Assembly (NCBI GenBank): GCA_964518475.1
Contig: CAZFGR010000001.1
Location: forward strand, 32,001 to 96,000
Length of the DNA: 64,000 nucleotides
Reading direction: 5' to 3'
DNA from: an uncultured Nitrososphaerota archaeon
GTDB lineage: Archaea > Asgardarchaeota > Njordarchaeia > Njordarchaeales > Njordarchaeaceae
Positions 60,602 through 62,201 of this stretch are shown here, one piece after another. The notes beneath the pieces are model-generated. The model was not told the DNA's origin, searched no databases, and saw nothing but the letters and a program-made list of their open reading frames with translations. Position numbers and translations under genes: made by a program. Within the stretch, counting starts at the first letter, position 1. Each line of letters starts with the position of its first letter.

Positions 60602-61937
60602 ATGGCTAGAAAGAAACCACACATAAACTTAGTTATTATCGGGCACGTAGACCATGGAAAGAGCACCACCGTAGGACACTTCCTCTATCTAGTAGGCGCG
60701 ATTGATGATAGAGTAATTAAGAAGTACGAGGAAGAGGCAAAGCAAATCGGAAGAGAATCTTGGAAGTACGCCTGGGTGCTAGATAAACTCGCAGAAGAAA
60801 GAAAGAGAGGACTTACAATAGACCTAGGATACTTCAAATTCGAAACACCAAAGTACATGTTCACAATCATCGATGCCCCTGGACACAGAGACTTCATCAA
60901 GAACATGATTACTGGTGCAAGTCAAGCAGACGCGGCGATTCTAGTAGTTTCCGCTAAAAGAAACGAGTTTGAAGCTGGATATGCTCTAGGAGGACAGACA
61001 CGAGAGCACGCCATCTTAGCTAAGACACTAGGGATCGATCAAATGATTGTTCTCATTAACAAAATGGATGCCGTGAACTGGGACAAATCGGTCTATGAAG
61101 AAATAAAGAACGAAATGCTAAGATTCCTAACAGGCATCGGTTACAAGCCAGACCAAATAAAAGCCGTGATACCTGTAAGCGGACTACTAGGAGACAACCT
61201 GAAGGAGAAGTCTCCTAACATGCCTTGGTATGACGGACCTACACTATACGAAGCCCTCGACCTCCTTGAACCACCCAAACCAATGGTCGATAAGCCGTTC
61301 AGAATGCCCATCCAGAAAGTCTTCAAGATAAAGGGTGTTGGAACAGTAGTAACTGGAAGAGTCGAAACTGGAAAACTAAAGAAAGGAGACCAAGTAATAA
61401 TCCAGCCTCTAGGAAAGCAAACAATCGCACAATCCATCGAGATGCACCACGAACCCCTAGACGAAGCAGTACCAGGAGATAACGTAGGCGTAAACCTCAA
61501 AGGAATATCGGCCGACGAAGTCAAACGTGGTGACGTCATGGGTCATCCCGATAACCCACCAACAGTCGTTGGACCAGGATATGGTACATTCCTAGCTAGA
61601 GTATGGGTCATCTGGCACCCAACAAGCATAAGTGCTGGTTACACACCCGTAATGCATGCGCATACACTACAAGTAGCTACTAGGTTCGTACACTTACACG
61701 CAAAGTACGGACCAAAAGGCGAACTACTAGAAGAAAATCCAAGCTTTATAAAGAAAGGAGAATACGCCCTAGTAGAGCTCGAACCAATCAAACCATCAGT
61801 CATCGAGAAATTCAGCGAATTCCCACCATTAGGGCGCTTCGCTGTACGGGATACCGTGGGGGTTCACGCCCCCACGGCCCGAAATGGGACAGCTAGTGGC
61901 CGTAGGAGTCGTCCAGGAGATCAAGAAGGCGCAATAA
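60602..61937 (+). CDS. tuf: Translation elongation factor 1-alpha; join(60602..61852,61884..61937), 434 aa after intron removal
   Basis: GHVDHGKST, RGLTID, DAPGHRDF and NKMD motifs; the conserved ending GRFAVRD-MGQLVAVGVV is restored only after removing 31 nt. Confidence 0.96.
61853..61883 (+). other. 31-nt bulge-helix-bulge (BHB) mRNA intron in EF-1alpha
   Basis: CGGG/CCCG 4-bp central helix, 3-nt bulges ATA and AAA, inner 9-bp stem CCGTGGGGG/CCCCCACGG; cutting after the 2nd nt of each bulge gives the in-frame junction GAT/ATG. Confidence 0.9.
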
Positions 61938-62201
61938 TCCCAGCGGAGCCAATAATTTCTCTTCCCAGAATTTTACCAATTTTTTCTTTTCCCATTGCTA
62001 ATTCTCTCTAAACTTATTTTTGTTTTTTATGAAAATATTCTGTTGAAGAATTTTGCAAAGCAAAAAGATTAATGCCTATAAGGCTATTTTACTCACTCTC
62101 ACTTGTATAAAATTCCTAGTTTCGATATGAAAGAAAATGTCTTACTTAAGATGAGAGAGAACGTAACCAAGAGTTTTTAGAAAAGGATAAATTAAAGGTT
62201 T

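Follow-up and report, generated by a model that had tools for sequence, protein, structure and literature searches.

A 31-nt insert in the aEF1A gene of a Njordarchaeia genome is probably a bulge-helix-bulge pre-mRNA intron

We analysed a window of 64,000 nucleotides (G000:C1:32001-96000) from an archaeal metagenome-assembled genome (MAG) of 2.33 Mb in 121 contigs, which is 91% complete with 5.8% contamination. Sister assemblies are titled Candidatus Njordarchaeota or Njordarchaeum and belong to the Asgard lineage. The window holds an open reading frame (ORF) of 469 aa at 60602-62011 that the NCBI annotation lists as EF-1 alpha. Its first 417 aa match archaeal elongation factor 1A (aEF1A) in Pfam, with the GTP_EFTU, D2 and D3 domains, up to GRFAVRD. 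What follows is a tail of 52 aa that starts with TVGVHAPTAR and matched no Pfam family. In this frame the D3 match stops at profile position 92 of 106, whereas in an intron-less orthologue it reaches position 105. A second EF1A was not found in the 91%-complete MAG, where the next best match is 30% identical, so that an intact copy elsewhere, the possibility left by the first-pass annotation, did not come to light.

The lost ending lies in another frame downstream. Excising the 31 nt at 61853-61883 joins GAT/ATG, regains the conserved ending (RD followed by MGQLVAVGVVQEIKKAQ and a stop) and yields a protein of 435 aa with the C-terminus RDMGQLVAVGVVQEIKKAQ. The sequence after the insert, hereafter exon 2, corresponds to roughly the last 13 positions of domain 3 of EF-Tu in the intron-less orthologue, and the longer D3 match of that orthologue indicates that exon 2 provides the end of D3. 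The C-terminal peptides of the predicted spliced product (...AVRDMGQLVAVGVVQEIK and ...FAVRDMGQLVAVGVVQEIK) would differ from the read-through peptide. Excision of 61854-61884 would lead to an identical product, since an A stands at each of positions 61853 and 61884. The insert is 74% GC, against 39% for the window. The first-pass annotation had proposed that a bulge-helix-bulge (BHB) intron interrupts EF-1alpha here and that automated annotation would miss it. Every sequence element it had named lies where it had placed it (Table 1), the excision it had derived does restore the frame, with the same junction as in intron-less orthologues, and the public record is indeed the read-through ORF.

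Table 1. Features of the aEF1A gene and its insert, and similar inserts in two ribosomal protein genes. Positions are those of the window except for uL2 and uS12, which lie outside it and are given by genome and contig.
Feature	Position	Strand	Basis and remarks
aEF1A exon 1, 417 codons, ending ...GRFAVRD	60602..61852	+	ORF list, Pfam
GCTGTA, upstream of the central helix	61841..61846		
Short outer helix, 5' strand UA	61845..61846	+	pairs with 61885-61886 (UG); A-U and U-G invariant
Central 4-bp helix, 5' strand CGGG, exon 1	61847..61850	+	pairs with 61878-61881; invariant in five variants
5' bulge AUA (ATA in DNA); predicted cut 61852/61853	61851..61853	+	fold; cut rule checked on tRNAs of the same genome
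Predicted 31-nt BHB intron	61853..61883	+	fold, excision, five variants, DNA contigs of two runs
Intron stem-loop, stem of 9-10 bp, loop of 4-6 nt	61854..61877	+	fold, covariation
CCGTGGGGG, before the loop	61854..61862		
Loop TTCACG	61863..61868		
CCCCCACGG, after the loop	61869..61877		
Central 4-bp helix, 3' strand CCCG, intron	61878..61881	+	invariant in five variants
3' bulge AAA (AUA or AGA in variants); predicted cut 61883/61884	61882..61884	+	fold, variants
aEF1A exon 2, MGQLVAVGVVQEIKKAQ plus stop	61884..61937	+	frame restoration, purifying selection
TGGGACAGC, after the 3' bulge	61885..61893		
uL2 insert, 47 nt, inner helix of 13 bp	G000:C1:205520-205566	-	BHB scan, loci L091, L092
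uS12 insert, 33 nt, inner helix of 11 bp	G000:C1:172387-172419	+	BHB scan, loci L090, L109
aEF1A insert, 31 nt, inner helix of 10 bp	61853-61883	+	BHB scan

As listed in Table 1, the insert and its flanks can be drawn as a BHB, and this is also the MFE fold of 61835-61900 (-34.9 kcal/mol, z -3.76), which 1 of 200 shuffled sequences equalled. The geometry described in the first-pass annotation held for the central helix, the two bulges and the 10-bp inner stem, but not for the long outer helix. The 5-bp MFE outer helix (GCUGU:ACAGC) is not conserved in relatives and was dropped from the motif, leaving a conserved outer helix of only 2 bp (A61846-U61885 and U61845-G61886). With an invariant outer helix this short, the motif is a relaxed BHB, which would therefore require an EndA splicing endonuclease of broad specificity. 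The real genome contains five strict BHBs whose inner helix is 10 bp or longer, compared with 0-3 in each genome shuffled with local composition preserved; a strict BHB as good as the one in aEF1A turns up roughly once per shuffled genome. Since shuffled genomes give similar BHBs, the fold alone is weak evidence, and the motif itself is not significant genome-wide. The significant part is that in each of three genes a BHB matches, to the base, the two ends of an insert that breaks the frame; besides aEF1A, these are the genes of ribosomal proteins uS12 and uL2.

An insert that breaks a frame in a MAG might be an assembly artefact, and the available DNA disfavours this. In two public DNA runs, Logan contigs span 61600-61893, insert included, with no indel or joint. 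These contigs come in two strain forms: one is identical to the window, and the other, with 40 differences from it (T>C at 61863 among them), matches the sister species G002. The insert also turned up in four further assemblies through pattern scans and a protein search. Among 40 relatives, the EF1A insert occurs only within the genus (in G002, G001 and the present genome, G000). The congeners G004 and G006 and a contig of G005 read uninterrupted through RD/M(A/G)QL..., joined exactly at GAT/ATG. Similarly, relatives in run X3 have ...AGAGAT joined straight to position 61884 (ATGGG...); this allele has no intron, and its junction is the predicted one.

The EF1A gene of one congener, G003, takes a different course. 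At L007:2700-2900 (CBDULE010000039.1) its ORF loses homology at the 5' splice site and runs into RD/ICKIFPRIFC and a stop, and a search for exon 2 in this 66%-complete MAG found none. We considered a trans-spliced EF1A in G003 and did not adopt it, given a near-identical intron-less protein of 433 aa with a normal end (P0004). Because this protein exists, we suspect that the G003 contig is a chimera or carries a rearrangement at the intron site.

Five distinct versions of the insert are available (from G000, G002 and G001 and from the metagenomic variants L081 and L127), each 31 nt long. We scored pairing on the canonical BHB drawn over an alignment of these five. All 80 of 80 pair cells are standard pairs, compared with 39-50% when the partners are slid. 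Two pairs of the inner stem change from G-C to A-U on both sides and one from G-C to G-U, and the loop varies freely. With just five related sequences, the support from covariation is modest. Exon 2 adds a separate line of evidence. Between variants, its MGQ frame shows 8-11 synonymous and 1-2 non-synonymous codon differences, as opposed to 0 synonymous and 9-11 non-synonymous in the other two frames. Judging from these substitutions, exon 2 is under purifying selection solely in the spliced frame. The read-through tails of the variants are unlike one another in sequence and length, the ORFs being 469, 461 and 467 aa long.

The genome also appears equipped for the reaction. Of its 45 tRNA genes, 20 have introns according to ARAGORN. 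In at least five of these tRNAs, the intron ends given by ARAGORN are reproduced exactly by the rule that places each cut behind the second base of a 3-nt bulge. Two EndA paralogues are encoded. The alpha paralogue (G000:C1, 215 aa) matches the catalytic alpha subunit of A. pernix (3P1Z_B) at 6e-50; the alignment spans the Crenarchaea-specific loop, and the K44-equivalent lysine and the Tyr/His/Lys triad are conserved. The second paralogue (G000:C26, 203 aa) is beta-like, since Phe replaces the Tyr and Gln replaces the His of the triad. Asgard EndA has been described as an (alpha-beta)2 enzyme with an L1 loop that permits relaxed motifs (PMC5829648), and the pair predicted here agrees with that type. 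The ligase RtcB is present too. Its matches are dispersed over the start of one contig (G000:C5:1-1212), the end of another (C18:30073-30752) and a fragment that contains two TAA stops (C55:1173-1589). Assembly gaps may have broken the gene, or a second, degraded copy may exist. Taken together, geometry, covariation, selection on exon 2, sister alleles and the complement of enzymes argue for the BHB pre-mRNA intron in EF-1alpha that had been proposed at first pass.

To place the insert in its genomic setting, we ran a strict BHB scan over both strands of the whole genome, keeping GC-rich inserts whose excision joins open frames. The aEF1A insert ranked third, below inserts of the same kind in uL2 and uS12. 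Excision from uL2 gives RGVAMN/ACDHPFGGG, with the insert splitting the Asn codon in a strict BHB. Excision from uS12 gives GRSMGD/IPGVKFRVVKV, and the unspliced frame ends at a TGA inside the insert. Both inserts are patchily distributed among relatives. That of uS12, in which six pairs are compensatory, is 33 nt long in G000, G002 and G001, is 34 nt long in G006 and is missing from G003, G004 and G005. That of uL2 measures 47 nt in G000, G002 and G004 and 53 nt in G005, and is absent in G001, G003 and G008. Lengths at the same site that differ modulo 3, and are repaired only by exact excision, are a strong argument for RNA splicing and against recoding. In a tree of the three proteins, G004 and G006 form a very close pair and yet differ in the uS12 insert, which implies fast turnover.

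The three introns have no sequence in common and no copies elsewhere in the genome (blastn-short); they therefore do not represent a repeated mobile element. We looked for further introns with a relaxed BHB scan (316 GC-rich islands) and a codon-score screen, whose hits were mostly structured RNAs, RNase P RNA among them, and false positives in AT-rich intergenic sequence. One candidate, a 21-nt mini-intron with an in-frame TAG in a conserved hypothetical gene (G000:C22:12707-12727, + strand; L128:1008-1028), was rejected: the G007 orthologue reads through the site with TGG (QGGSVLWIGDIP), so the TAG is either a sequencing error or a nonsense change. This rejection indicates that the comparative test is able to fail. 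No interruption was seen in cbf5 of this genome, where TruB_N is contiguous within an open frame of 340 aa.

Several explanations other than splicing by EndA and RtcB deserve consideration. Ribosomes might recode the message, either by a +1 shift within the 31 nt that inserts TVGVHAPTAR before MGQ or by a hop like that in T4 gene 60. None of the five variants has an in-frame stop among the ten codons of the insert, and in G001-type variants GAT stands both before the insert and before exon 2, providing matching take-off and landing codons. T4 gene 60 bypass and +1 frameshifting further resemble the aEF1A case in having a short non-coding gap and a hairpin in an essential ORF. However, ten open GC-rich codons are expected by chance, and the codon before exon 2 is GAA or GAG in three of the five variants (G000, G002 and L127), which removes the landing match. 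A slippery site or a stop after the take-off codon is absent. Unlike gene 60, then, aEF1A mostly lacks matched take-off and landing codons, and the substitutions in its insert follow RNA pairing and not codons. Recoding would also leave unexplained the uS12 insert, with its in-frame TGA and 33/34 nt, and the uL2 insert of 47 or 53 nt. We regard it as highly improbable. A different set of enzymes, such as some other nuclease acting with its own ligase, might remove the insert from the RNA in place of EndA and RtcB; this would be compatible with the weak outer helix and with the fact that EndA cleavage at this site is a prediction. Against this, the inserts end at EndA-rule positions in three unrelated genes, and tRNAs of this genome use the same motif. 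Self-splicing as a group I or II intron was also rejected, because the ribozyme core of such introns spans hundreds of nt, more than the insert can hold, and Rfam gave no match at the site. Participation of other enzymes thus seems very unlikely.

Two further readings would deny that the insert is removed at all. The gene could be decaying or mis-assembled, carrying a frameshift lesion or an artefact, with another EF1A in use or the organism not viable as drawn. A MAG of 121 contigs with measurable contamination invites such doubt, as does the BHB-like candidate on C22 that turned out to be a plain nonsense change. It is difficult to reconcile this reading with a 31-nt insert at the same site in independent contigs of two runs, in four further assemblies and in five variants, with strong purifying selection on exon 2 in its own frame, or with the failure to find another EF1A, and we find it barely credible. 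Alternatively, the unspliced protein of 469 aa could be the functional form, with exon 2 not translated as part of EF1A, as the public annotation would have it. The tail of that product varies in sequence and length among variants, matches no family and displaces the last strand of domain 3, and selection acts on the MGQ frame instead. We give next to no weight to this option.

We conclude that the 31 nt at 61853-61883 are very probably a BHB intron in the only aEF1A gene found, removed by EndA and RtcB; cleavage and ligation themselves we infer. In the pre-mRNA, CGGG of exon 1 would pair with CCCG at the 3' end of the intron, forming the 4-bp central helix. This would be flanked by the two 3-nt bulges, with the 10-bp GC-rich hairpin of the intron on one side and the weak 2-bp helix between the exons on the other. 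A heterotetrameric (alpha-beta)2 EndA, its alpha subunit bearing the broad-specificity loop, would cut both bulges. RtcB would then ligate the exons at GAU/AUG and probably circularise the 31-nt intron. On this model the full 435-aa aEF1A, including the last strand of domain 3, would come from spliced mRNA only.

What role the intron might play is a separate matter. It is gained and lost among close relatives, and on these grounds it is most likely a tolerated, evolutionarily mobile passenger, not a regulator or an indispensable control. The first-pass annotation had raised the idea of a feedback that couples EF-1alpha supply to tRNA maturation, which is speculation. The presence of such introns in three translation genes is suggestive of a feedback link, but the idea is weakened by close relatives that lack one or more of them. 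A stronger version holds that EndA and RtcB gate the output of aEF1A, uS12 and uL2 in Njordarchaeia, as a post-transcriptional checkpoint tied to RNA-processing capacity and an archaeal counterpart of RtcB-dependent mRNA splicing of the XBP1/HAC1 type. We think this unlikely. If true, it would place XBP1/HAC1-like splicing in the closest prokaryotic relatives of eukaryotes.

Watanabe and colleagues reportedly described a BHB intron in the cbf5 pre-mRNA of Crenarchaeota in 2002. The cbf5 intron is found in Aeropyrum, Sulfolobales and Desulfurococcales (PMC2738675, Yokobori 2009), and cbf5 of Crenarchaeota is the only confirmed case of archaeal pre-mRNA BHB splicing in the searchable literature (PMC2738675). 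The two systems are alike in having, within coding sequence, a short BHB intron as a substrate of the tRNA splicing endonuclease (as predicted for aEF1A), a patchy, lineage-specific distribution with gains and losses, and routine mis-annotation. They differ in host gene and phylum, with aEF1A, uS12 and uL2 of Asgard Njordarchaeia in place of cbf5, so that three translation-machinery genes of one genome are affected compared with one gene. Splicing of cbf5 has been demonstrated experimentally, whereas that of aEF1A is deduced from comparison of sequences. We also considered an intron homologous to that of the cbf5 lineage and rejected it, the host gene here being aEF1A of an Asgard archaeon. 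Our literature search turned up no earlier description of such an intron for EF-1alpha, for any ribosomal protein gene or for mRNAs of Asgard archaea, and a 2026 preprint on Asgard introns deals with tRNA genes only. We infer a known mechanism acting in new genes (aEF1A, uS12 and uL2) and a new phylum.

Other systems offer partial parallels. BHB introns of archaeal tRNAs and rRNAs share with aEF1A the motif (a 4-bp helix and two 3-nt bulges), the cut rule and, as predicted, the enzymes. In contrast to these introns, splicing of aEF1A would compete with translation of the same RNA, and excision must be exact to the base to hold the frame because the exons are codons. The mRNAs of HAC1 and XBP1 also carry a short, spliceosome-independent intron at paired stem-loops whose removal changes the C-terminal frame. 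RtcB performs the ligation in metazoan splicing of the XBP1 type (PMC13149111) and would do so in aEF1A. The nuclease differs, however, being IRE1 and not EndA, and HAC1/XBP1 splicing is a regulated stress switch.

These results imply that an Asgard lineage would need EndA-dependent mRNA splicing to make two ribosomal proteins and a translation factor that is essential and highly expressed. Gene callers misannotate such genes, as with the 469-aa product in the public record. BHB introns can be gained by and lost from coding sequences over short evolutionary times. The three genes are testable substrates for asking how splicing coexists with coupled translation in archaea, and they bear on whether RtcB-based mRNA splicing predates eukaryotes.

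Some structured RNAs of the genome merit separate mention. Within the window, an archaeal RNase P RNA lies at 1746-2091 on the + strand (Rfam RF00373, 166.6 bits), and a tRNA-Ser(CGA) with a 47-nt intron lies at 22587-22708 on the same strand. The latter was missed by default ARAGORN and detected by ARAGORN in intron mode and by Rfam. At G000:C10:22367-22480 (- strand), a whole intron-containing tRNA-Phe sits within a BHB-like motif with a TTGG/CCAA central helix and a 7-bp outer helix. This bracketing motif hints that EndA may excise the entire tRNA-Phe precursor.
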